Assembly (NCBI GenBank): GCA_017887425.1
Contig: JAGHHZ010000024.1
Location: 49,534 to 113,533, forward strand
Source of the DNA: Bacilli bacterium
GTDB lineage: Bacteria > Bacillota_I > Bacilli_A > RF39 > UBA660
Length of the DNA: 64,000 bases
Direction: 5' to 3'
The notes beneath the pieces are model-generated. The model worked only from the letters and a program-made list of their open reading frames with translations, was not told the origin of the DNA and made no database searches. Positions 20,781 through 60,950 of this stretch are shown here, piece after piece (position 1 is the stretch's first letter; the number at the start of each line of letters is the position of its first letter). Made by a program: the position numbers and the translations under genes.

Positions 20781-22268
20781 GTGGAGTTAGTTTTACCTAA
20801 AAGTAATAATACTGCTGAAAATAAAAAATTATTTGAGCAACTTAATAGTGGTAATCTTTCAATACGTAATAAAATTATTGAAAAAAATTTAAGATTAGTT
20901 GAAATGACTATTCAAAAAAAATTACCAGATTTTTCTGATTTACCATATATGGATAAAGAAGATTTATTTGAAATTGGATGTATTGGATTAATCAAGGCTG
21001 TTGATAGTTACGATTTAGATAGAGGAAAAGCCTTTTCAGCTTATGCAGTTATTTGTATTAGAAACGAAATATTAATGTATTATCGAAAAAACAAAAAGTT
21101 AAGTTTAATTGATAGTTTAAATGAAAATGTTAGTGAAGAAGATGAACGAAGTAAAGTTGAACTTTTAGTATCTAATGAAGAAAGCATCGAAGATCAGTAT
21201 ATTCAAAAAGAAACTAGTATAGAGATGTTAGAACATTTATCTTGTCTAACAGAAATAGAAAAGAAAGCAGTTAAACTCTACTATGGTTTTGGAGAACGAC
21301 GATTTACTGACCGAGAAATTGCTCAAGAATTAGGATATTCACAATCTTATATAAGCAGAATATTAAAAAAAGCTCGACATAAATTAAAAGATTTGCTGGA
21401 AAATAAATCTTTTAATGAAATAGTTCAAGAGGAATATAGTTTTGAAGTTTCTGATGCATTCGCACTATTTAGTGAATATCCTCGAGCTAAAATTATTAGA
21501 ACAATTAAGAAGTTACCTAAGGCAAAAAGAAAATTGTTTTTAGATTGTTATCCAATTAATGGTAAATATGGATTAACATTTAAAGAAGTTTGCCAAAAAT
21601 ATAATTTATCTAGTAAAGTTTTATTAAGAAAATTAGATAAAATTAAAGAAGAAATTTTATTTTTAATTATACAAGATCAAAGAAAAACTAGACAAGTAGA
21701 TATTTTTAAACAACTTCCTGATTATCCAAAAGAAAAAGTACTTGAAGCAATTCATATGCTAGAAGAACCTAATCAAACTATTTTCACTCTACGTTATGGA
21801 ATTGATAGAAAAAATCAACTTAGTGTTGAAGAAATAGTTTCTAAACTAGAAGGAAAAGAATTAGATATTCCTTTAACACCTGAAAGTGTTATTAAAAATT
21901 TATTTGTATCTAGACAGACAATAAAAAGACTGGTTCAACAAGGAAACGGTATCAAAATAAAAACTAATTTTTTAAATTCTGAAGAGTTATTTTTTTCTAA
22001 TTTTCCTGGTTATTCTAAAGAACAAGTTTTATCACTATTTCCTAATTTATTAGAGCGAAGAAGAATAATAGTAGAATTGTGCTTTGGCTTAAATGGTAAT
22101 GAGACAAAAAGTATCAAAGAAATAGCTATAATGATGGGGTGCAGTCAAAAAGAAGTTAAACAAAGAGTAGAATATGTAATAAAAGTTTTGAATAAACAGT
22201 TAAAAGATCGGTATAAAGAGCCAGAAGATAGTAAAGTTTTGACTAAGAAAAAAGTTGAAAAAAGATAA
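20781..22268 (+). CDS. Sigma-70 family RNA polymerase sigma factor with three additional C-terminal region-4-like HTH modules (495 aa)
   Basis: Region 2 (LRLVEMTIQKK...EDLFEIGCIGLIKAVDSYDLDRGKAFSAYAVICIRNEI). Region 4 (LTEIEKKAVKLYYG...TDREIAQELGYSQSYISRILKKARHKL). Three further repeats share the region-4 pattern (LPKAKRKLFLDCYP...FKEVCQKYNLSSKVLLRKL; TIFTLRYGID...SVEEIVSKLEG; RRIIVELCFGLNG...IKEIAIMMGCSQKEVKQRVEYVIKVL). GTG start after AGGCAGGTGG. Confidence 0.7.
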   Translation: MELVLPKSNNTAENKKLFEQLNSGNLSIRNKIIEKNLRLVEMTIQKKLPDFSDLPYMDKEDLFEIGCIGLIKAVDSYDLDRGKAFSAYAVICIRNEILMYYRKNKKLSLIDSLNENVSEEDERSKVELLVSNEESIEDQYIQKETSIEMLEHLSCLTEIEKKAVKLYYGFGERRFTDREIAQELGYSQSYISRILKKARHKLKDLLENKSFNEIVQEEYSFEVSDAFALFSEYPRAKIIRTIKKLPKAKRKLFLDCYPINGKYGLTFKEVCQKYNLSSKVLLRKLDKIKEEILFLIIQDQRKTRQVDIFKQLPDYPKEKVLEAIHMLEEPNQTIFTLRYGIDRKNQLSVEEIVSKLEGKELDIPLTPESVIKNLFVSRQTIKRLVQQGNGIKIKTNFLNSEELFFSNFPGYSKEQVLSLFPNLLERRRIIVELCFGLNGNETKSIKEIAIMMGCSQKEVKQRVEYVIKVLNKQLKDRYKEPEDSKVLTKKKVEKR

Positions 22269-25568: not shown

Positions 25569-26357
25569 TTATATTTTTAATAGTTTTGTATAAGTGATTT
25601 CCCCTTGTTCGTCTTTTACTTTATTTTCTCTTGAAGTTATATGATTTACTTCACAATATCTTTTTTTGAATTCAGTTTCGTCTTTTAAAAGTTCTCGCAT
25701 ATCTTTTAAAAATATTTTATATGTTTCATCTTCGAAGAACATATTTTCTGGACTATCTTCACTATATTTTTTTGATAATCTTTTTATTGTATAGTTCAAA
25801 TAATCTTCGATATTTTCTTCTGGCATTCTTTCGTGAGCAACAAAGAAACTTCTGATAAAAACAATTTCTATTCTGGTATTTCTATCCGCCGAAGAAATTA
25901 ATTTACCATAAATACTTCTTGGATCATCTTCTTTAGAAGAACGGTGATCTTCAATGGCTTCTTTAATTATTGTTCTTTCTTCATCAGTAAAAAATTTTTT
26001 CATATTTTCGTCTTCAATAAATCTTTTAGCAGCAATCTTTTCATGAATTGTATGATCTTCATATTTTCCTAAGTCATGACAAGCTGCTATTGCATATATC
26101 ATATTATCATCTAATCCTAGTTTGAAAGTGTCATTTAAAGCAAATGCTCTTCTTATAACTTCAATGATATGAACAATTCCATGAGCTTTATCATTTGGTT
26201 CATATTGTGGAAAAATAAATTCTATAATGTACTTCTTTAATTCAGGATTGACATTTTTAGTATAATAATCGAATTCATCGATTCCAACTGCTTCTAAAAT
26301 TTTAGAGCGATATACATCAAAACTAACTTTAGGCTTCACTTTATTATATAAGATCAT
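25569..26357 (-). CDS. HD-domain phosphohydrolase
   Basis: HD motif region GIVHIIEV and AACHDLGKYEDH. 262 aa. Confidence 0.65.
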   Translation of the reverse strand: MILYNKVKPKVSFDVYRSKILEAVGIDEFDYYTKNVNPELKKYIIEFIFPQYEPNDKAHGIVHIIEVIRRAFALNDTFKLGLDDNMIYAIAACHDLGKYEDHTIHEKIAAKRFIEDENMKKFFTDEERTIIKEAIEDHRSSKEDDPRSIYGKLISSADRNTRIEIVFIRSFFVAHERMPEENIEDYLNYTIKRLSKKYSEDSPENMFFEDETYKIFLKDMRELLKDETEFKKRYCEVNHITSRENKVKDEQGEITYTKLLKI

Positions 26358-50815: not shown

Positions 50816-51712
50816 ATGAATACTAGTGAAATGAAAATATTACTAACTAAGTATGTTTCATTTATTGATGGGATAAGTTTAAAGTATCAATATCCTGATA
50901 ATATTAAACATTTATTATATGTTATAGTGCCAGCTTTTGTTATAAAATATGGTTTAAAAAGAGAGCATTTTATTCTTAATTGTTTAAGTGAAATTCCAAT
51001 TGTTATAACGGGTAAAGAAGATCCAAGATATCAAGCTTTATATGTAAGTTATCCATATAAAGATAATACAATTAAAACTAAAAAACGTATTTATTTAAAT
51101 CGTTATAATAACATTCCGTTTTTACAATTAATCGATAATTTAGTTCATGAATTTAACCATGCTATTAATTCCTTTAAAAATGAAGTTACTATTAAAGATG
51201 ATATTTTTTATTTAAGAACGGGTTTAGCAAAAACTAGTTTTAATAAAGATACTTTAGAAATAATCGAAAAAGAAAAAACTTATGTTTTAGAAGAAATAAT
51301 TAATTCAAAACAAACGGAATTGATTATCGATATTATTAAAAAATTAAAAGATTTAAATATTGAAGATGTAAGAATTCAAAATACTTTAGAAGCAGTTAAA
51401 AATAGTGTCGATGACAAATATATCTCTTCATCTTATTTTTCAATGAAATATTATTGCCAAGAATTATTGAATAATAAAACATTTTTATTAACAATAGAGA
51501 ACTTAAGAATTGACGGTAATATCGATGATATTGAATATTGGTTTGATGGAATTTATGGTGATAAAGGATATAAAACATTAGTTAATTTATTATATCAGAT
51601 GATAGAGTTGCAAAATAAAAAAGGATTTTTTGTTAAAAGAAAAATCAAAGATACTGCTTTACAATTAGTTAAAATGAGTAAACAATTTAATCAAAATTGT
51701 AATTTGAAATAA
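50816..51712 (+). CDS. Hypothetical protein with an HExxH motif, inserted in the dcw cluster
   Basis: 298 aa. LVHEFNHAI is a possible zincin motif. No other recognisable domain. Confidence 0.4.
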   Translation: MNTSEMKILLTKYVSFIDGISLKYQYPDNIKHLLYVIVPAFVIKYGLKREHFILNCLSEIPIVITGKEDPRYQALYVSYPYKDNTIKTKKRIYLNRYNNIPFLQLIDNLVHEFNHAINSFKNEVTIKDDIFYLRTGLAKTSFNKDTLEIIEKEKTYVLEEIINSKQTELIIDIIKKLKDLNIEDVRIQNTLEAVKNSVDDKYISSSYFSMKYYCQELLNNKTFLLTIENLRIDGNIDDIEYWFDGIYGDKGYKTLVNLLYQMIELQNKKGFFVKRKIKDTALQLVKMSKQFNQNCNLK

Positions 51713-51747
51713 TTTGTGTTATAATCTTTGTAATTTTGGGGGTTATT

Positions 51748-52611
51748 ATGGAAGATGTTATAAAAATAGAAATTGTAAACAAAGGATTTCCTATTTACCA
51801 CAGTCAATATCTTGATTGGACAATTAGATTGGCGCAAATGAAAAAGAAAGATAAAGAAAAGATTTATCAATTATATAAAACATTGTTATCGTTAGTTGGG
51901 GAAGATTGCATTGCTGAACACTTACATTTTTTTATAAATGATAAGCCATTTCTTTATGAAAATATTCAAAATTTTGATATTGATGTAATGATAGAAAATC
52001 TAGTTAAATTAGATAAGATGCCATTTGAACAAGGAAAGATTTCTATTCATTTAAATCAAATGGTAAAGGAAAGTAAAAAAGAAGTTTTAGATACTTCTAA
52101 AGAACCCTTAAATTTATCTTATTTAAAACGAGTAAAAGAAATGGCCGAAAAAACAGATTATCCTTGCTTTTATTATTATCAAGTGCCAGTTCAGAAAGAA
52201 GAATTATTTGAAATATCTAAAGATAGTAATGGTTATAGATATTTAAAAATCAAAAAAGTTTATTTACCATATTTAAGATATTTAGATTTATCTAAAATTA
52301 ATTTTCAAAATGTTGATTTACGAGGAATCGATTTATCCTATACTAATATTAGCGATATCGATTTTTCTTCTCTTTATCAAAATAGTTTAGAAAATACTAA
52401 TTTTGAAGGTGTTGTTTTGCTTAGTAATACTTTATCTAATATTAATGCTAAAAAATCTAATTTGTGTGGAACATTTTTATCTATTGATATTACAACAACC
52501 AATATTGATAAGGCTAAACTTGATGATAGTGTTACTATATTATCTAATAATCATGTTTTTAGAAAAACTATTAAAAGTAGAAATAATATAAATTGTCGTC
52601 TTCATTTTTAA
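51748..52611 (+). CDS. Pentapeptide-repeat protein
   Basis: The C-terminal half has tandem A(D/N)LxX-type pentapeptides (LSKINFQNVDLRGIDLSYTNISDIDFSSL..NTNFEGVVLLSNTLSNINAKKSNLCGTFLS). The Met at 51748 follows GGGGG. Confidence 0.55.
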   Translation: MEDVIKIEIVNKGFPIYHSQYLDWTIRLAQMKKKDKEKIYQLYKTLLSLVGEDCIAEHLHFFINDKPFLYENIQNFDIDVMIENLVKLDKMPFEQGKISIHLNQMVKESKKEVLDTSKEPLNLSYLKRVKEMAEKTDYPCFYYYQVPVQKEELFEISKDSNGYRYLKIKKVYLPYLRYLDLSKINFQNVDLRGIDLSYTNISDIDFSSLYQNSLENTNFEGVVLLSNTLSNINAKKSNLCGTFLSIDITTTNIDKAKLDDSVTILSNNHVFRKTIKSRNNINCRLHF

Positions 52612-54920: not shown

Positions 54921-55595
54921 ATGATTAAATCTAAACATCAAGGACTGTTAGTTGTTATTTCAGCTCCATCGGGAGCAGGTAAGGGAAGTATTATAAATGA
55001 AATGCTCAACAAAGATAATAATTTATGGTTATCTATTTCTGCTACTAGTCGTCCTATTCGTACTAATGATGAAGAAGGAGTAACTTATTATTTTTTTACT
55101 AAAGAAGAATTTGAAGAAAAAATTAAAGAAGATTACTTTTTAGAATATGCTACTTATGCAGGAAATTATTATGGTACTCCAAAAGAACACATTCAAAAAC
55201 ATTTAGATAAAGGGCAAGATGTTATTTTAGAAATTGAAATTCAGGGAGCAATGCAAGTAAAAAAATTAATTCCTGAAGCATTATGTGTTTTTATTATGCC
55301 ACCATCATTAAAAGAACTAAAAAAAAGATTAGTTACTAGAGGAACTGATAATAAAGATAAAATCTTAGAACGTTTTAAAATAGCTTATCAAGAGATGAAT
55401 GAAGTTACTAAATATAACTATGTAGTTATTAATGATGATATTGATGTTGCAAGTGATAAAATATTATCGATTATTAAAGCTGAAAAATGTCGTGTCGATC
55501 GAATTGAAGAAGTCTTTTTAAATAATGAAGAAGAATATATGCACGAAATGTTATTAGAAGAAGATTTTGACAATAGCCCATTAAAAATAGAATGA
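54921..55595 (+). CDS. gmk: Guanylate kinase
   Basis: P-loop ISAPSGAGKGS and SATSRP..E..G..Y.F, collinear with Gmk. Confidence 0.88.
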   Translation: MIKSKHQGLLVVISAPSGAGKGSIINEMLNKDNNLWLSISATSRPIRTNDEEGVTYYFFTKEEFEEKIKEDYFLEYATYAGNYYGTPKEHIQKHLDKGQDVILEIEIQGAMQVKKLIPEALCVFIMPPSLKELKKRLVTRGTDNKDKILERFKIAYQEMNEVTKYNYVVINDDIDVASDKILSIIKAEKCRVDRIEEVFLNNEEEYMHEMLLEEDFDNSPLKIE

Positions 55596-55598
55596 AAA

Positions 55599-55624
55599 AA
55601 ATATGGATTGCTCCATATTTTTTT
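55599..55624. terminator. Bidirectional terminator between gmk (+) and the collagen-like gene (-)
   Basis: AAATATGGA-ttgc-TCCATATTT hairpin with an A-run upstream and a T-run downstream. Confidence 0.6.
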
Positions 55625-56411
55625 AGTTAATTCTTGTTATAGAAACGCTGGCAGAGTATAGATTATTTGGTACTAATTCGAAATCATTATATGAGGTGTT
55701 AATGAATCTATAGCTTGCTCCAGGAAGTGCTTCAAATATAGCATTACCATTAATTGTACCAGTTTCACAACATGAAAGTTTATTGTGGGTTGAAGAGTGT
55801 GCGATTAAAATGTCTTCTGGCCAGAATTGGTGAAATTCTATTCCTAGCGGTTTTTCTTCGCAATTGAAGTTATCATTTTTATGACTTCTAACATTTACCC
55901 ACCAATGGACGATATAGATTCCAGCTTCTGGAATAGAAAAGTCTCCAGTTGCAGGATTATATGTGATTTTGTTGGAAATGTTAGTATTTTGGAATAAAAT
56001 AGGGTTTTGTGATTGAACTGTAGAATTAGATCTATCGTGAACCATTGCATAACTATCTAAATTAATTCCAGGTCCAGCAGGTCCAGTAGGTCCAGTTGCA
56101 CCAGTCGCACCACTAGGTCCAGTAGGTCCAGTAGCACCAGTCGCACCACTAGGTCCAGTAGGTCCAGTGGCACCAGTCGCACCGCTAGGTCCAGTAGGTC
56201 CAGTAGATCCAGTAGCACCAGTAGCACCGCTAGGTCCGGTAGGTCCAGTTGCGCCGGTAGCTCCTCTAGGCCCAGTAGGTCCAGTACATCCACATGGTCC
56301 GGTAGGTCCTTGTTTTTGACGGTCAACTAAACACTTTATAACTTCGCATAAAGGGTTATTTCTACATTCGTCTTTTCTTAAGAATTCTTCAATTTTGTCA
56401 TTCTCGTTCAT
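55623..56411 (-). CDS. BclA-like collagen-repeat protein: short N-terminal domain, about 28 G-X-Y triplets, and a C1q/TNF-like C-terminal domain
   Basis: [33 protein letters not shown]... G-X-Y repeats built from a [12 protein letters not shown] 12-aa unit. The roughly 140-aa C-terminal domain has the beta-rich character of the BclA globular domain. Strong RBS AAAGGAGG. The gene is convergent with gmk. Confidence 0.75.
56068..56310. repeat. GC-rich tandem 9-bp (GGTCCAGTA-type) and 36-bp repeats encoding the collagen G-X-T triplets
   Basis: A ggtccagtaggtccagtggcaccagtcgcaccgcta unit repeats more than 4 times with single-base variants. Local GC is far above the window average. Confidence 0.85.
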
Positions 56412-56596
56412 CGCTTTTACCTCCTTTCACTTTATGTTATGTTGAATATTGAAAGTTGACTAAACGCATATCTCTTGTTTTAAAATTAAATTTTAAAAAC
56501 TAAACGAGTGTAACAGATATTATAAAATAATCGTAAAAATAGTGTTATTAACCTAATGGTAATTCGATTCAAATATAAAAAAAGTATAAAAAAAGC

Positions 56597-56624
56597 TTGA
56601 CAAACATATAATAAATGGTATAAT
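56597..56624 (+). promoter_or_regulatory. Sigma-A-type promoter of the infC-rpmI-rplT operon
   Basis: TTGACA, 16-nt spacer, TATAAT (near consensus). Confidence 0.6.
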
Positions 56625-56639
56625 TATAGAGAAATGAAG

Positions 56640-56750
56640 AAGGAAAGCGAGTATCCACACTCCACCTGATAGCTATAAGGCTATGGGTTAGTAAGCCGAT
56701 TTAATTGTGTTTATGGTAGGTGGATACTGTTCGTATCTACTTTTTTATTG
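56640..56750 (+). promoter_or_regulatory. infC-rpmI-rplT operon leader (L20-responsive attenuator-type leader) with a terminator-like hairpin
   Basis: Structured leader between the promoter and infC. It ends in a GGATAC-tgttc-GTATC hairpin followed by a T-run (CTACTTTTTTATT). Firmicutes L20 leaders occupy this exact position. Confidence 0.5.
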
Positions 56751-56762
56751 TTGGAGGTGTCA

Positions 56763-57296
56763 ATTATCGCAAATAAATCTAAAGATTCATTAATTAATGA
56801 ACAAATTAAAGCCAAAGAGGTTATGGTTATCGGACCAAATGGTGAACAATTAGGAACTAAAGGAATCAAAGATGCACTAACTTTAGCAAATTATGCTGGA
56901 TTCGATTTAGTTTTAATTAATCCAAATGGTAATCCACCAGTTTGTAAAATCATGGATTACAACAAATTTAAATATGAAAATAAAAAAAGAACTAAAGAGA
57001 ATTTAAAAAAACAAAGAGAAGCTAATTTGGAAATGAAAGAATATCGCTTGTCTGTTACTATCGATGTTCACGATTTTAATACGCGTGTAAAAAACAGTGC
57101 TAAATATTTGGAAAAAGGACATAAAGTAAAAGCTACTATTCGTTTTAAAGGTAGAGAAATGGCTCACCCAGAATTAGGACGTGAAGTTTTAATGCGTTTT
57201 GCTAGTGCCCAAGAAAGTGTAGCGATTATTGAACAACAACCTAAACTAGAAGGACGTATAATGTCGATGATTTTAGGTCCAAAAAAGGAAAAATAG
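56763..57296 (+). CDS. infC: Translation initiation factor IF-3 with a non-canonical AUU (ATT) start codon
   Basis: GGAGGTG RBS followed 5 nt later by ATT ATC GCA AAT AAA. The IF-3 sequence (VMVIGPNGEQLG, C-domain) matches. AUU initiation of infC is a conserved autoregulatory feature. Confidence 0.88.
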   Translation: MIANKSKDSLINEQIKAKEVMVIGPNGEQLGTKGIKDALTLANYAGFDLVLINPNGNPPVCKIMDYNKFKYENKKRTKENLKKQREANLEMKEYRLSVTIDVHDFNTRVKNSAKYLEKGHKVKATIRFKGREMAHPELGREVLMRFASAQESVAIIEQQPKLEGRIMSMILGPKKEK

Positions 57297-57309
57297 GAGG
57301 AATTAAGAT

Positions 57310-57498
57310 ATGCCAAAAATGAAAACTCATAAAGGAACAAGTAAAGTTTGTAAAGTAAGACCAGGTGGAACAATTAAAATTGGTCATCCTGGAACAAGAC
57401 ATAATACAGGAAAGAAAAATGCTGCTAGTAACCGTGCTGGTAGAACAGCATCAACTTTAAGTAATAGCGATTACAAAAGAATTAAGGATTTAATATAA
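57310..57498 (+). CDS. rpmI: 50S ribosomal protein L35
   Basis: MPKMKTHKGTSKVCKVRPGG N-terminus. 62 aa. Confidence 0.92.
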   Translation: MPKMKTHKGTSKVCKVRPGGTIKIGHPGTRHNTGKKNAASNRAGRTASTLSNSDYKRIKDLI

Positions 57499-57510
57499 GG
57501 AGGTAATAAT

Positions 57511-58032
57511 ATGGCAAGAGTTAAAGGTGGAACAATCAGTCGTGCAAGACATAAAAAAGTTTTAGATCAAGCCAAAGGATATTTTGGTAGTAAACATAGA
57601 CTTTACCGTACTGCAAATGAACAAGTAATGCATTCTGGTAAATATGCATTCCGTGATAGAAAACAAAAGAAAAGAGATTTCCGTAAATTATGGATTACAA
57701 GAATTAATGCAGCTTGTCGTCAAAATGATATTAGTTATTCAAAATTTATCAATGGTTTAAATAAAGCTGAAATTGATATCAACCGTAAAATGTTAAGCGA
57801 GATTGCTATTGATAATCCAAAAGCATTTACTGAATTAGTTAGTGTTGCTAAAGATGCTTTAGAAGGAAAAGTAACTAAAGCTGTTAAAGAAACTAAAACA
57901 GCTAAAACTGAAAAAACAAGTTCAGATTTAAGCAGTAAAACAGTTGCTGAATTAAAGGAAATAGCTAAAGAAAAGAATATCGAAGGATATTCAACAATGA
58001 AAAAAGCAGAATTATTAGAAGCTTTAAAATAA
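57511..58032 (+). CDS. rplT: 50S ribosomal protein L20 with a roughly 55-aa C-terminal extension carrying a Rho_N-like motif
   Basis: Residues 1 to about 118 are canonical L20 (MARVKGG...[11 protein letters not shown]). The extension is [53 protein letters not shown]. Confidence 0.85.
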
Positions 58033-58047
58033 GCTTCTTTTTTTTAC
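58018..58047 (+). terminator. Rho-independent terminator of the infC-rpmI-rplT operon
   Basis: GAAGCTT-taaaat-AAGCTTC hairpin followed by T10. It overlaps the rplT stop. Confidence 0.65.
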
Positions 58048-58050
58048 ATA

Positions 58051-58812
58051 TTGTATAATCATAAATATTATTATATAATTAATATGGTGGATAGTATGTG
58101 GAAAATTATAAAATGGCCATTAATTTATTTGGTAATTCAGTTTATATTAATATTTGCTTTAGCTTATTATTTTGTTAGTAATGGTAATAATATTGAAGGA
58201 TTTAATAATTTTTTAGTCGACAAACAAATATATATTGCGATTGCTTTAGGAATTATTTTTATCCCACTTTTAATTTATGGCTACCGTGACTTTAGGCAGG
58301 ATAGCAGAAAAATAAATGTTTTTGGTTTAATTTTATTAGGTATAATTATTAGTTTATTATATAATGTTTTTGCTTTTTATTTAAATGAATACTTTTTAAA
58401 AACTGATTTATATTCTAATCAAAATAATCTACTTACAACTTTAGTCATAACTGGATTAATTGGTCCTATAATCGAAGAATTGATGTTTAGAGGAATAATT
58501 TATAATGAATTAAAACTTAAAGTGTCTCCTATGAAAGCAATACTAATAACTACTTTATTTTTCGCAATAACGCATTTTAATGTCTTACAAATAATTTATA
58601 CTTTTGCAGTTGGCTTCTTATTTATTTTCTTTTATGAAAAATATAAAGACATCAAAGCTCCAATTATTTTACATATGACATTAAATATAACGACGACGTT
58701 ATTTTTACCATTATTGACAAAAAATATTTTTGCTGTTAATTATACTGTTTTTCTAATTAGTCTAGTTGGCTTATTTATTGCTTTTCAATATACGAAAATA
58801 TTTAAATCATGA
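58051..58812 (+). CDS. CPBP-family intramembrane glutamic endopeptidase (CAAX protease-like)
   Basis: Polytopic membrane protein with EELMFRG and FAITHF motifs. Confidence 0.7.
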   Translation: MYNHKYYYIINMVDSMWKIIKWPLIYLVIQFILIFALAYYFVSNGNNIEGFNNFLVDKQIYIAIALGIIFIPLLIYGYRDFRQDSRKINVFGLILLGIIISLLYNVFAFYLNEYFLKTDLYSNQNNLLTTLVITGLIGPIIEELMFRGIIYNELKLKVSPMKAILITTLFFAITHFNVLQIIYTFAVGFLFIFFYEKYKDIKAPIILHMTLNITTTLFLPLLTKNIFAVNYTVFLISLVGLFIAFQYTKIFKS

Positions 58813-59357: not shown

Positions 59358-60950
59358 ATGACTTTATTTATTGGTGCTTTGTTTTTTATGTTAGCATTTA
59401 CAATAGCCGATTTAAAAAAAGCTTTTCATATGCTTCAGCAAAATTGGTACAATGATGGAGATCGTTATTTAAAATGGATTAATAATAATAGTCGTTTTGT
59501 TTTTCTATGGTTTGATTATATTTATATATTTATATCTTTAATCGGATATTTTATCGATCCTAATATTTTAAGTATTATATTTATAATTTATTATTTTATA
59601 ATTACTTTTATGCTACTAGAAAGATATAAAAATGAGCAAGTAAAAAAACCATTAGTTTTTACTAGTCGTATTAAAAGAATGTGTGTAACAATAGCTATTT
59701 TATATTTAATTCCGGTAACAACTATTTTTCTAACTTTTGATGAAAATTTAATTTTTATTTATTACTTTATTATCGGCAGTTTAATTTATTTTAATTATTA
59801 TATTGTTTATTTGGCTAATATCATTAATAAACCAGTAGAAAAATTAGTTTATTTATATTATAAAAACAAAGCTAATAAAAAATTAAAAAGTTTAAATCAT
59901 ATGAAAGTTATTGGTGTTACTGGTAGTTATGGTAAAACTAGTACTAAAAATATCATTAGTGATATTTTAAATATTAAATATATTGCTTTTCCAACACCTC
60001 AAAACTTTAACACTAATTATGGTTTAATCAGAACAATTAATGAATATATTGATAAATATAACGATTATTTTATAGCTGAGCTAGGAGCTTTTAGAAGAGG
60101 TGATATCAAATCTAGAGCAAGTATTGTTAAACCTAAATATGGTGTTTTAACTAAAATAGGAACTGCGCATTTAGATACTTTTGGTTCGATAGAAAATACA
60201 ACTAAAGCTAAATTCGAATTAATTGAATCATTGCCTAAAGATGGAATTGCTTTTTTAAATATCGATGATGAATTACAAGTAAATTATCAATTAAAAAATA
60301 AAGTAAGAATAGTTTGGTACGGATTAAATGATGAAGCTGACGTATATGCTACAAATATCAAATATTCTAAAGATGGTATGAGTTTTAAAGTTCATTTTAA
60401 AAACGATAAAAACGCCTATGAATTTACGACTAAATTATTAGGTGAGGCTAACGTATACAATGTTTTAGCAGGAATAGCTGTTAGTAAAGAATTAGGCTTG
60501 AATATTGAAGAATTACAAAAAGGTGTTTCTCAAATCAGACCAATCGAACATCGATTGCAAATACGTAAATATGGTTTAATTACTTATATCGATGATGCTT
60601 ATAATTCTAATCCAGTTGGCTCAAAAATGGCTTTAGATGTTTTGAAACTAATGCCAGGTAAAAAAGTGGTTATCACACCAGGAATGATTGAGATGGGAAG
60701 CAAACAATATGAAGTTAATTATAACTTTGGTAGATTTATTGGTAGTAGTGTTGATTTAGCTATCTTAGTTGGAACTGAACAAACGAAACCAATTCAAGAG
60801 GGAATAAAATCTACTAAATTCAATTTAGAAAATTTAATTGTCTTAAACGATGTAAAAGAAGCAATAGCTATCGCTCAAACTTATTTTAAAAATCAAGAAA
60901 CCTATATATTATTAGAAAATGATTTGCCAGATGTCTTTAATGAGAAATAA
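59358..60950 (+). CDS. murF: UDP-N-acetylmuramoyl-tripeptide--D-alanyl-D-alanine ligase (MurF) fused to an N-terminal polytopic membrane domain
   Basis: Mur ligase P-loop GVTGSYGKTSTK. MurF-type motifs (NFNTNYG, IDDAYNSNP, VITPGMIEMGS). The first roughly 180 aa are hydrophobic with about 5 predicted TM helices, replacing the usual soluble domain 1. Confidence 0.75.
   Translation: MTLFIGALFFMLAFTIADLKKAFHMLQQNWYNDGDRYLKWINNNSRFVFLWFDYIYIFISLIGYFIDPNILSIIFIIYYFIITFMLLERYKNEQVKKPLVFTSRIKRMCVTIAILYLIPVTTIFLTFDENLIFIYYFIIGSLIYFNYYIVYLANIINKPVEKLVYLYYKNKANKKLKSLNHMKVIGVTGSYGKTSTKNIISDILNIKYIAFPTPQNFNTNYGLIRTINEYIDKYNDYFIAELGAFRRGDIKSRASIVKPKYGVLTKIGTAHLDTFGSIENTTKAKFELIESLPKDGIAFLNIDDELQVNYQLKNKVRIVWYGLNDEADVYATNIKYSKDGMSFKVHFKNDKNAYEFTTKLLGEANVYNVLAGIAVSKELGLNIEELQKGVSQIRPIEHRLQIRKYGLITYIDDAYNSNPVGSKMALDVLKLMPGKKVVITPGMIEMGSKQYEVNYNFGRFIGSSVDLAILVGTEQTKPIQEGIKSTKFNLENLIVLNDVKEAIAIAQTYFKNQETYILLENDLPDVFNEK

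Follow-up and report, generated by a model that had tools for sequence, protein, structure and literature searches.

The minus-strand gene at 55623..56411 of the window (the whole stretch of 64,000 nucleotides analysed, from the lineage RF39) probably encodes a BclA-like spore-surface fibre protein of an RF39 gut bacterium. The most likely role of this protein is predicted to be that of a fibre made by the mother cell and displayed on the spore. The label "BclA-like", given in the first-pass annotation, holds for the architecture and for the C1q/TNF fold, but fails on the exosporium leader and on the BclA_C score. Because it has no exosporium leader and falls below the BclA_C threshold, the protein is not a strict member of the BclA family. 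The spore-fibre interpretation is only partly supported, because the -35 region does not fit, the strict BclA tests failed, and viral fibres match the fold equally well; moreover, sporulation, expression timing and spore localisation are all inferred. None of the three tests that the first-pass annotation had named as able to refute its idea went against it.

The ORF list gave a CDS of 262 aa plus stop codon, and the coordinates proposed earlier match it exactly. Its neighbours in the window are gmk, an amylase-like gene, an FtsW/SpoVE-like gene and infC-rpmI-rplT. The gene had been described as convergent between gmk and infC; it converges with gmk but diverges from infC. RNA folding revealed an A-tract/hairpin/U-tract between the converging stops of gmk and the collagen-like gene (55595..55624; dG -13.5 kcal/mol, z -5.4), and none of 200 shuffled sequences was equally stable. 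This hairpin is likely a bidirectional intrinsic terminator common to both genes. With fewer than three G-C pairs in its stem, it escaped a simple terminator scanner, and an Rfam scan of 55000-58200 gave no match. In 80 related loci, varied housekeeping genes flank the collagen-like gene, mostly on the opposite strand. The gene is native, monocistronic and order-wide. A MerR gene lies downstream of it in 13 loci, a linkage confined to one clade. Another minus-strand ORF of 262 aa (25569-26357) is unrelated, and the shared length is a coincidence.

The C-terminal globular head comprises residues 116-262 (55626..56066, minus strand). It had been described as a beta-rich domain of roughly 140 aa; its length is 147 aa, and the AF2 model (pLDDT 93.9, pTM 0.88) is all beta. 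AF2 and Foldseek together gave a C1q/TNF jelly roll, the fold on which the BclA comparison had been made to depend. When the model was searched against PDB with Foldseek, the best solved match was the F-BclA head (9h38; E 6.8e-12, TM 0.71/0.76). BclA entries 1wck, 3tyj, 2z5w and 2r6q matched with E about 1e-10 to 5e-10 and TM 0.64-0.69, C1QL3 with TM 0.75/0.82, and the spike knob of phage phi812 was also among the matches. The phmmer match to BclA (E 1e-17) includes the collagen part. For the C-terminal domain, C1q (PF00386) was the only Pfam model to reach its cut-off: the isolated domain scored 24.0 bits and the whole protein 22.5 bits (E 1.4e-4), versus a gathering score of 23.7, and the alignment spans only profile positions 9-55 of 127. 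BclA_C (PF18573) remained below its gathering score of 38: the full-length protein scored 18.7 bits and the C-terminal domain 20.3 bits. Precomputed matches are found in many orthologues for PF00386 and in a few distant orthologues for PF18573. A profile built from the C-terminal domain alone reached only adiponectin (E 3e-5) and C1q, weakly, among PDB sequences. The head is presumed to serve in trimerisation and ligand binding.

The N-terminal domain (residues 1-34; 56310..56411, minus strand) was delimited from the sequence, the alignment and the full-length AF2 model. A short Cys-containing N-terminus had been noted earlier, and the 34 residues do contain Cys16, Cys22 and Cys27; they are hydrophilic and include one Pro. 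The full-length model has two helices here, residues 2-16 and 19-29 (pLDDT 65-70). In the family alignment, two cysteines (C21 and C26 when counted along its first row, from which Met1 is missing) are nearly invariant, and a motif C-L-C-x-V-I-x-C directly precedes the collagen region. C40 and C42 of the 262-aa protein lie inside the helix region. Pfam and NCBIfam scans of the 34 residues gave no match. Neither inspection of the sequence nor the NCBIfam scan revealed a signal peptide, a TM segment or an anchor such as LPXTG in the 262-aa protein. The 34 residues are unlike the leader peptide quoted in PMC12357932, i.e., an exosporium leader binding ExsFA/BxpB is absent. The psi-psi-x-P-F hook motif, one of the N-terminal docking elements of appendage tip fibrillae, is also absent from the window protein.

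The collagen-like region, residues 35-115 (56067..56309, minus strand), consists of 27 G-X-Y triplets from G35 to G115. The first-pass annotation was right about the repeat but slightly off in its count of about 28; its description of the triplets as mostly GPT, GAT and GPS agrees with our counts (GAT x10, GPT x7, GPS x4; GPG is among the others). The Pfam Collagen model matched with E 2.9e-12. The rise per residue in the collagen helix is 0.286 nm, and 81 residues would accordingly form a predicted triple-helical stalk of ~23 nm. Across orthologues, the X position is Pro in 52% or Ala in 30% of triplets and the Y position is Thr in 73%.

Tandem Repeats Finder detected a period of 9 nt (26.7 copies, 56070-56309) and a period of 36 nt (5.5 copies, 56079-56285). 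As had been claimed, near-identical 36-nt units are present: four full units at 56094..56246 (minus strand), the first followed by an additional 9-nt GST triplet, are identical to each other at 32-35 of 36 positions. Self-identity of the repeat DNA peaks at shifts of 36, 72/81 and 117 nt. These four units offer a substrate on which repeats could be gained or lost without a change of frame. When copy numbers were compared, as the first-pass annotation had proposed, they differed between orthologues, with 16-51 triplets (median 28) in 75 orthologues. Among close relatives the window protein has 27 triplets, and the proteins of loci L001, L003, L004 and L075 have 23, 28, 18 and 32, respectively. 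The repeat DNA (56067-56309) is GC-rich as reported, 60% versus 27% for the window. This value results from Gly, Pro, Ala and Thr codons, which raise GC at codon positions 1 and 2 only, and not from foreign DNA: in the collagen part GC2 is 100% and GC3 is 13.6%, versus a genomic GC3 of 14.8%. GC3 equal to that of the genome indicates that the gene is native.

Several known systems have the same build. BclA of the B. anthracis/cereus exosporium nap (1wck) combines an N-terminal domain, a GXT-rich collagen region of variable length and a C1q/TNF head, and likewise has no signal peptide. It differs in carrying an exosporium leader for ExsFA/BxpB attachment where the window protein has a Cys-bearing helix; its head is only 14-16% identical to that of the window protein, whose stalk is shorter, and no sugar-synthesis operon adjoins the gene in the RF39 window. 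In four of the 80 loci (four species), the collagen-like gene lies beside a GT2+TPR glycosyltransferase gene and a second collagen-like gene; these loci may be compared with C. difficile bclA3, which adjoins a glycosyltransferase gene. C. difficile BclA1-3 are likewise collagen-like, but are much larger and have long N-terminal domains. They are spore-surface proteins of a gut anaerobe and are sigma-K-dependent (PMC3789822). Metazoan C1q proteins (C1q, C1QL2/3, adiponectin, caprin-2) combine the same collagen stalk and C1q head and gave the highest TM-scores, 0.72-0.83. However, they are only 9-14% identical to the window protein, which is bacterial, has no secretion signal and carries Thr at the Y position where they have hydroxyproline.

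L-BclA and F-BclA, the tip fibrillae of Bacillus endospore appendages (ENA; 9h38), also have a collagen stalk and a C1q-like head and lack an exosporium leader. L-BclA and a candidate S-ENA tip protein share a Cys-rich N-terminus with this build, and the N-terminal Cys motif of L-BclA is thought to couple it by disulfide (PMC11362473, PMC12357932). The RF39 protein could therefore belong to the spore as the tip fibrillum of an appendage, of the L-BclA on L-ENA or F-BclA on F-ENA type, instead of as a nap filament. Its N-terminal Cys helix would then dock into the pilus subunit and be linked to it by disulfides. The F-BclA head as best solved match (17-19% identical to the window head), the Cys N-terminus without exosporium leader, and the CC or CCC motifs of several orthologues all point in this direction. 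We nevertheless consider an appendage tip unlikely. In the window protein no two cysteines are adjacent, and neither the window nor the 80 related loci have an Ena-type subunit gene next to the collagen-like gene. L-BclA and F-BclA genes sit with ena or exsL genes and their products dock to a pilus, and l-bclA is co-transcribed with ena3A (PMC11362473, PMC12357932), whereas the RF39 gene is solitary and monocistronic between housekeeping genes. It is also much shorter: its stalk has 27 triplets, while the F-BclA collagen region of B. thuringiensis kurstaki is 701 residues long and that of the Berliner strain has ~91 triplets (PMC11362473, PMC12357932).

The region upstream of the gene contains a conserved promoter-like arrangement. 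The RBS GGAGG (56420..56424, minus strand), within GAAAGGAGG, lies 8 nt before the ATG, and tGAAAGGAGG is kept in nearly all orthologues. CATAACATA (56433..56441, minus strand) is the candidate -10 element of a sporulation promoter of the sigma-K/sigma-E class, as judged from its conservation in orthologues. Its C is 30 nt before the ATG and its gap to GGAGG is 8 nt; the distance of ~20 nt upstream of the RBS given earlier is in fact that to the start codon. The element had also been placed in the mRNA leader; if it is a -10 element, it is upstream of the transcript. Its likeness to the sigma-K/sigma-E -10 consensus CATA---TA was noted correctly, since it is an exact consensus and nearly invariant across orthologues. 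Sigma-E and sigma-K have this -10 in common in B. subtilis (PMC517825), and C. difficile bclA1-3 have sigma-K-like promoters (PMC3789822).

The weight of this 9-mer comes from its conservation across species, not from its frequency in the window, where four matches versus 1.5 expected are not significant. In 65 of 71 orthologous regions, an exact CATAnnnTA lay no more than 60 nt upstream of the start; in 56 of these, 26-33 nt separated its C from the start codon. Base frequencies in orthologues were C.98, A 1.0, T 1.0, A 1.0, n, n, A.77, T 1.0 and A.97. CATAnnnTA followed by an RBS precedes 62 of 71 collagen-like genes, versus 15 of 868 neighbouring ORFs (1.7%). The same arrangement precedes 4 of 4 genes of a second, unrelated RF39 collagen-like family.

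Position frequencies and a PWM revealed a conserved upstream block, GAGATATGCGTTTAGTCA (56457..56474, minus strand), a candidate -35 region and/or activator site. Its family consensus is aGtTATtaGCTcA, at -32..-20 when counted from the C of CATA; frequencies are 0.80-0.89 at -31, -29, -28, -27, -24, -22 and -20, and ~0.5 further upstream. At the collagen-like gene, a PWM combining block and -10 scored 28.9; the second-best window site reached 16.2, and shuffled sequences did not exceed 13.3. This PWM detected no other regulon member in the window, and one weak match above 15 outside the collagen-like genes in 1.1 Mb of related loci, all of them neighbourhoods of this gene. The canonical -35 spacing for sigma-K/sigma-E was not seen, AC being 13-15 nt before CATA. 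The sigma-E "ATA" -35 is absent upstream of CATA, and sigma-G and sigma-F patterns do not fit. A MerR-type promoter was rejected because the spacing is too long and the MerR linkage is restricted to one clade. For infC, 200 nt away, the promoter reads TTGACA-16-TATAAT, a perfect match; sigma-A promoters are therefore canonical in this genome, and the promoter of the collagen-like gene, which has no sigma-A -10/-35 pair, is different.

Collagen-like adhesins occur in non-sporulating bacteria, and the gene might encode a vegetative cell-surface fibre or adhesin, or have some other non-spore role, its product reaching the outside by some route of export or by release on lysis. The best NCBIfam matches, Scl2/SclB, Scl1 and Lcl, are indeed adhesins. 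Sporulation of RF39 is only predicted, from a published genome survey in which the order is a mix of sporulating and non-sporulating species (PMC10868615), and no documented RF39 isolate or spore was found in the literature searched. This explanation is nonetheless improbable. The adhesin matches run through the collagen region only and score 63, 53 and 49 bits versus cut-offs of 325, 400 and 500; the protein has neither a signal peptide nor a TM segment, LPXTG or other anchor; and the conserved promoter lacks a sigma-A pair in a genome where such pairs are canonical. The window itself encodes a SigK/SigE-like sigma factor (162 bits versus the SigK cut-off of 252) and SpoVD- and SpoVE-type genes that score above NCBIfam equivalog cut-offs, although the latter could simply be the cell's only division proteins. 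An NCBIfam scan of unannotated window ORFs detected no further sporulation genes.

A large-serine-recombinase element splits the collagen-like gene in two independent assemblies of one species (L040, L081). Similar elements split a SpoVD-like gene at residue 419 in two other species. Mother-cell genes split by such elements are a known pattern (PMC4191935), but a collagen-like gene split by a mobile element may also be a dead gene. Serine-recombinase elements lie within 7 kb of the gene in 16 of 80 loci, and exact CATAnnnTA was found upstream of the recombinase gene in L024 only.

Relatives of the gene were found in 171 GTDB species genomes, all from uncultured gut Bacilli; the named genera that were checked belong to two RF39 families. 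The protein database contains 123-177 close homologues. In a word-indexed search with a profile of the C-terminal domain only, the best 120 of 177 matches belonged to the same tight family, all at least 54% identical to the window domain. When collagen columns were kept in the alignment, giant collagen proteins dominated the profile search and no remote relatives of the C-terminal domain were detected. The 2.9 million IMG/VR contigs yielded no tblastn-confirmed sequence relative, and 50,697 GenBank phage records and 72,556 plasmids yielded none either. Within 10 kb of the gene the window contains no phage genes, which also argues against the prophage location that the first-pass annotation had regarded as damaging to its proposal. 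A phage origin, as a domesticated or remnant fibre or receptor-binding protein, or a place in a phage-like particle is therefore very unlikely: phage tail fibres and giant-virus proteins share the fold and the collagen-then-C1q-head order and match as well as BclA (Foldseek versus viral models, E 3e-12 to 1e-10), the phi812 knob matches too and recombinase elements are frequent nearby, but the RF39 gene is chromosomal, present throughout the order with native codon usage, stands alone behind its own conserved sporulation-type promoter, and, where a recombinase element adjoins it, is interrupted and not carried by that element.

If the protein is a spore-surface fibre, late transcription of its gene in the mother cell would depend on RNA polymerase with a sigma-K/sigma-E-type factor, and the conserved block upstream of the -10 may be the binding site of another factor. 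Three chains would trimerise through the C1q-like head and then zip into the collagen stalk, the Thr residues of which may be O-glycosylated. The N-terminal Cys helix would fix the trimer by disulfides to a Cys-rich outer spore layer or appendage, and not by the ExsFA/BxpB leader mechanism of BclA. The heads would face outward and could mediate adhesion or spore-spore contacts, and stalk length would change in frame when the 9- and 36-nt units slip or recombine.

More tentatively, and with somewhat more doubt than confidence, we propose that RF39 really forms endospores with a collagen/C1q nap, that a small late mother-cell regulon, specific to RF39 and recognisable by CATAnnnTA directly before the RBS, includes the gene, and that large-serine-recombinase intervening elements target this gene, as they do the SpoVD-type gene, and are excised in the mother cell so that it is restored. 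If so, developmental DNA rearrangement of the skin/SPbeta type would also occur in the Mycoplasma-related branch of Bacilli and would affect a gene for a spore-surface fibre.

RF39 is widespread, genome-reduced and among the most prevalent uncultured gut lineages. Its sporulation, so far predicted from gene content, bears on host-to-host transmission and on culturing. The gene is a useful sign that RF39 bacteria make spores and offers a concrete marker for such spores: its product could serve as an antigen, and the gene could be amplified by PCR or sought in ethanol-resistant fractions. The promoter motif could define the late mother-cell regulon in whole genomes, and the repeat tract is usable for strain typing. 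Since the C1q-type head would face the host or other spores, it is an obvious adhesion candidate. The protein type is well known from Bacillus and Clostridioides, and the RF39 gene adds a member, not a principle.

Many "head-only" database homologues of 138-146 aa are products of gene calling; they arise from contigs broken inside the repeat, from six orthologues without a canonical start codon and from one true insertion. One homologue is named "complement C1q domain-containing protein" by NCBI.

The open reading frame at 55623-56411 on the minus strand, found in the first-pass annotation, was confirmed and encodes a protein of 262 aa. The protein comprises a hydrophilic N-terminal segment (residues 1-34) with three cysteines and no hydrophobic stretch, a collagen-like region (residues 35-115) of 27 uninterrupted G-X-Y triplets (GAT ×10, GPT ×7, GPS ×4, the rest single), and a globular domain, termed the head (residues 116-262). 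The GAT/GPT/GPS repeats had been correctly recognized, and the estimate of about 28 triplets is revised to 27. The whole protein matched the Pfam Collagen model (E 2.9e-12) and, weakly, C1q (22.5 bits) and BclA_C (18.7 bits). Tandem Repeats Finder revealed period 9 at 56070-56309 and period 36 at 56079-56285; the near-identical 36-bp units seen earlier correspond to four full copies with mutual identity of 32-35/36. The collagen segment is GC-rich as annotated (60% vs. 27% for the window), with the excess confined to codon positions 1 and 2 (GC2 100%); GC3 was 13.6% vs. 14.8% across ten other genes. The GC spike thus results from Gly/Pro/Ala/Thr codons in the host's own codon dialect and is no marker of imported DNA. 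Repeat number, which the annotation proposed to compare among strains, was compared between orthologues: triplets ranged from 16 to 51 (median 28) and differed even in close relatives.

In B. subtilis, the -10 element common to sigma-K and sigma-E promoters is CATA---TA. When the sequences upstream of 71 orthologues were aligned at the start codon, 65 had an exact CATAnnnTA no more than 60 nt ahead of it, and in 56 of those 65 the C stood 26-33 nt before the start codon. Base frequencies among 64 distinct sequences were C.98, A 1.0, T 1.0, A 1.0, n, n, A.77, T 1.0 and A.97. The motif is preceded by a T-run at -13..-9 and a conserved block at -32..-20 (consensus aGtTATtaGCTcA), and is followed by the RBS tGAAAGGAGG; beyond the block, upstream conservation drops to base-composition level. 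An RBS preceded by CATAnnnTA was present at 62/71 collagen-like genes vs. 15/868 neighbouring ORFs. At the sequence level, the element matches the published sigma-K/sigma-E consensus; B. subtilis sigma-K and sigma-E promoters have a common -10 element (PMC517825), and C. difficile bclA1-3 are sigma-K-dependent (PMC3789822). An 'AC' is found 13-15 nt upstream, off the published -35 gap, and the -32..-20 block could represent a -35 particular to this lineage or bind an activator. The window copy, CATAACATA at 56433-56441 (-), was not significant by itself within the window. The resemblance to the sigma-K/E -10 consensus noted earlier gains weight from conservation of the motif in the 65 orthologues. 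The motif lies nearer the RBS than the roughly 20 nt originally given.

Evidence that the organism sporulates is indirect and of three kinds: a published prediction, sporulation-type genes in the window, and recombinase-split genes in relatives (described below). RF39 was predicted to be spore-capable from annotated Bacilli genomes, with spoIIGA, spoIIM, spoIIP, spoIIQ, spoIIAH (as printed) and spoVG present and spoIIAB, spoIIE, spoVB and spoVD reduced or absent (Field et al., PMC10868615). In NCBIfam searches of the window, a PBP scored above the SpoVD equivalog cut-off (734 vs. 688), an FtsW-family protein scored barely above that of SpoVE (449.4 vs. 448.8), and a SpoVB-like flippase fell below its cut-off. 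A sigma factor of 495 aa is encoded at 20781-22268 (+); its best NCBIfam matches were SigK (162 bits) and SigE (139 bits), both below cut-off. The SigK/SigE match covers the first ~210 residues, beginning after the pro-sequence position, and is followed by a ~285-aa extension in which residues 414-463 make up a second HTH of the region-4 type. This protein is a candidate for the cognate sigma factor of the CATAnnnTA promoter.

Residues 113-262 were modelled by AlphaFold2 from a 78-sequence alignment. The model was all-beta (pLDDT 93.9, pTM 0.88), in agreement with the beta-rich C-terminal domain of about 140 aa noted at first pass. The proposed structural comparison with BclA and C1q gave matches to both: the top Foldseek match in PDB was 9h38 (E 6.8e-12, TM 0.71/0.76), the F-BclA head from the Bacillus thuringiensis F-ENA (endospore appendage) tip fibrillum, followed by BclA entries (~1e-10) and then 4-1BBL and TRAIL, and the top TM-scores were those of C1q-like proteins (C1QL3, 0.75/0.82). 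The isolated head reached 24.0 bits against Pfam C1q (cut-off 23.7) and 20.3 bits against BclA_C (cut-off 38). When the family profile was compared with sequences of solved structures, it matched adiponectin and C1q alone, both weakly. The short Cys-containing N-terminal domain described earlier was also verified as residues 1-34. In the full-length model, residues 2-16 and 19-29 each form a short helix (modest confidence), and a 17-orthologue alignment showed a conserved C-L-C-x-V-I-x-C motif directly ahead of the first triplet. Residues 1-34 matched no Pfam or NCBIfam family model and did not resemble the exosporium leader peptide given in PMC12357932. Two defining features of the BclA family, the leader and a BclA_C match above cut-off, were tested and are lacking, so the collagen-like protein falls outside that family in the strict sense. 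It is nearest to F-BclA in fold, to L-BclA in N-terminal logic, and to C1q in sequence models.

We lean towards the view that the collagen-like protein works like BclA-type spore fibres. A sigma-K/E-type holoenzyme would transcribe the gene in the mother cell, the C1q-like head would nucleate trimerisation, and the triple helix would extend ~23 nm (81 residues × 0.286 nm). The depth of the BclA nap is set by stalk length, and the stalk here would be tuned when 9- or 36-nt units are added or lost in frame. The Cys helix may attach the fibre to a Cys-rich spore layer or appendage; L-BclA and the candidate S-ENA tip protein, the models for this proposal, also have cysteines at the N-terminus and no leader. 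The same likeness, together with the F-ENA tip origin of 9h38, is compatible with a less probable rival, a role at an appendage tip, which would still be spore-associated. The stalk and head could also be those of a vegetative adhesin, a reading that we regard as less probable; the protein has no export signals, and its gene carries the -10-like element. Thr glycosylation of the stalk is possible, the pointer being a GT2+TPR glycosyltransferase adjacent in L042, L045, L079 and L061 (loci around orthologues in four RF39 species). There it adjoins another collagen-like gene that is not orthologous to the one studied here but lies near it: L042 12278-13258 (-), L045 2720-3823 (-), L079 2879-3850 (-) and L061 3054-4088 (+), plus adjacent 360-aa genes. 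This second family has an N-terminal CCC motif and collagen runs broken by interspersed small beta domains, without a C1q head; CATAnnnTA lies 4-5 nt before the RBS in 4/4. The collagen-like gene studied here is valuable chiefly as a way into RF39 sporulation.

A protein search with the head domain returned 123 proteins, all ≥52% identical, among which the sole name was 'complement C1q domain-containing protein [Tenericutes bacterium]'. The gene is conserved order-wide, with 171 relatives (one genome per GTDB species). Each of the 80 loci examined came from a MAG of uncultured gut Bacilli, 'Tenericutes' or Mycoplasmatota, with Candidatus Aphodocola, Faecimonas, Onthousia, Faecisoma, Coprosoma and Fimihabitans among them; Aphodocola and Faecimonas are placed in order RF39, families CAG-433 and CAG-611 (Gilroy et al., PMC8035907). 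The many 'head-only' database proteins of 138-146 aa were rejected as artefacts starting at internal Met122. They arose from contigs breaking inside the repeat, from an inserted element (one species), and from an intact frame and RBS without ATG/GTG/TTG at the expected start. In the latter six orthologues (L017, L022, L068, L042, L045, L055) the start position is ATA or ATT and the frame is open through the conserved N-terminus; gene callers therefore give 140-aa head-only proteins.

The gene is convergent with gmk (TIGR03263, E 1e-69), as first described, and divergent from infC-rpmI-rplT, which had been taken as convergent. An A-tract/hairpin/U-tract between the stop codons of gmk and the collagen-like gene (dG -13.5, z -5.4) is a probable two-way terminator. 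The gmk and infC neighbourhood is kept in nearest relatives only, with other housekeeping genes elsewhere, and across the 80 loci orthologues are almost always solitary and oriented opposite to their neighbours. All genes within 10 kb in the window are housekeeping (SpoVD-type PBP, MraY, FtsW/SpoVE-type, amylase-like, CPBP protease, MurF), consistent with the initial remark that no phage genes are adjacent. A domesticated phage fibre is unlikely: viral models with collagen and a C1q head (giant viruses, phage tail fibres) matched at E 3e-12 to 1e-10 and the modelled head fold does not discriminate spore from viral contexts, but the gene is native, with no phage genes within 10 kb and no relatives tblastn-confirmed in IMG/VR, GenBank phages or PLSDB plasmids.

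Large serine recombinases (Resolvase + Recombinase + Zn_ribbon_recom) were found ≤7 kb from the collagen-like gene in 16/80 loci. In L040 (8374-10474), the recombinase gene ends 45 nt ahead of a 3' remnant of the collagen-like gene (residues 103-262, four triplets left); L081 (8320-10423), an independent assembly from another sample, has the same junction. In two species (L008 16236-18540; L058 15804-18108), the recombinase gene is directly followed by residues 419-638 of the SpoVD-type PBP. In five species (L004, L011, L024, L038, L077) only SpoVE-type residues 327-360 follow it; in L077 the other part is 9.2 kb away, the insert being ~9 kb. The SpoVE-type insertion, near the 3' end, could be harmless, whereas those in the PBP and collagen-like gene are disruptive. 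Excision during sporulation is well documented for recombinase-bearing elements lodged in mother-cell genes (skin, SPbeta, vfbin and vrin; PMC4191935), a suggestive parallel to the split RF39 genes. The window carries unbroken copies of all three genes. The split genes in relatives may be a more interesting lead than the collagen-like gene itself.

Several features of the neighbouring genes were also observed. The 336-nt gap before infC contains a perfect sigma-70 promoter, TTGACA-16-TATAAT with TG; promoter and leader together fall within 56597-56747 (+). A terminator-like hairpin in the infC leader (56718-56742), directly before the TTG start, could be an L20-type attenuator; no Rfam family scored above threshold. 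Ribosomal protein L20 (57511-58032, +; 173 aa) has a C-terminal extension ending in a Rho_N/SAP-like domain (PF07498, E 9e-11, residues 139-172), and the extension is kept in related loci (169-191 aa). The 530-aa MurF-type ligase (59358-60950, +) has a ~185-aa hydrophobic N-terminal extension, with Mur_ligase_M beginning at residue 187, which suggests membrane anchoring. Where Bacillus has murD and murG, the interval from mraY to the FtsW/SpoVE-type gene holds two unannotated genes (50816-52611, +), one encoding 298 aa without a family and the other a 291-aa protein of pentapeptide repeats; the 298-aa gene is kept at the same position in several RF39 loci.
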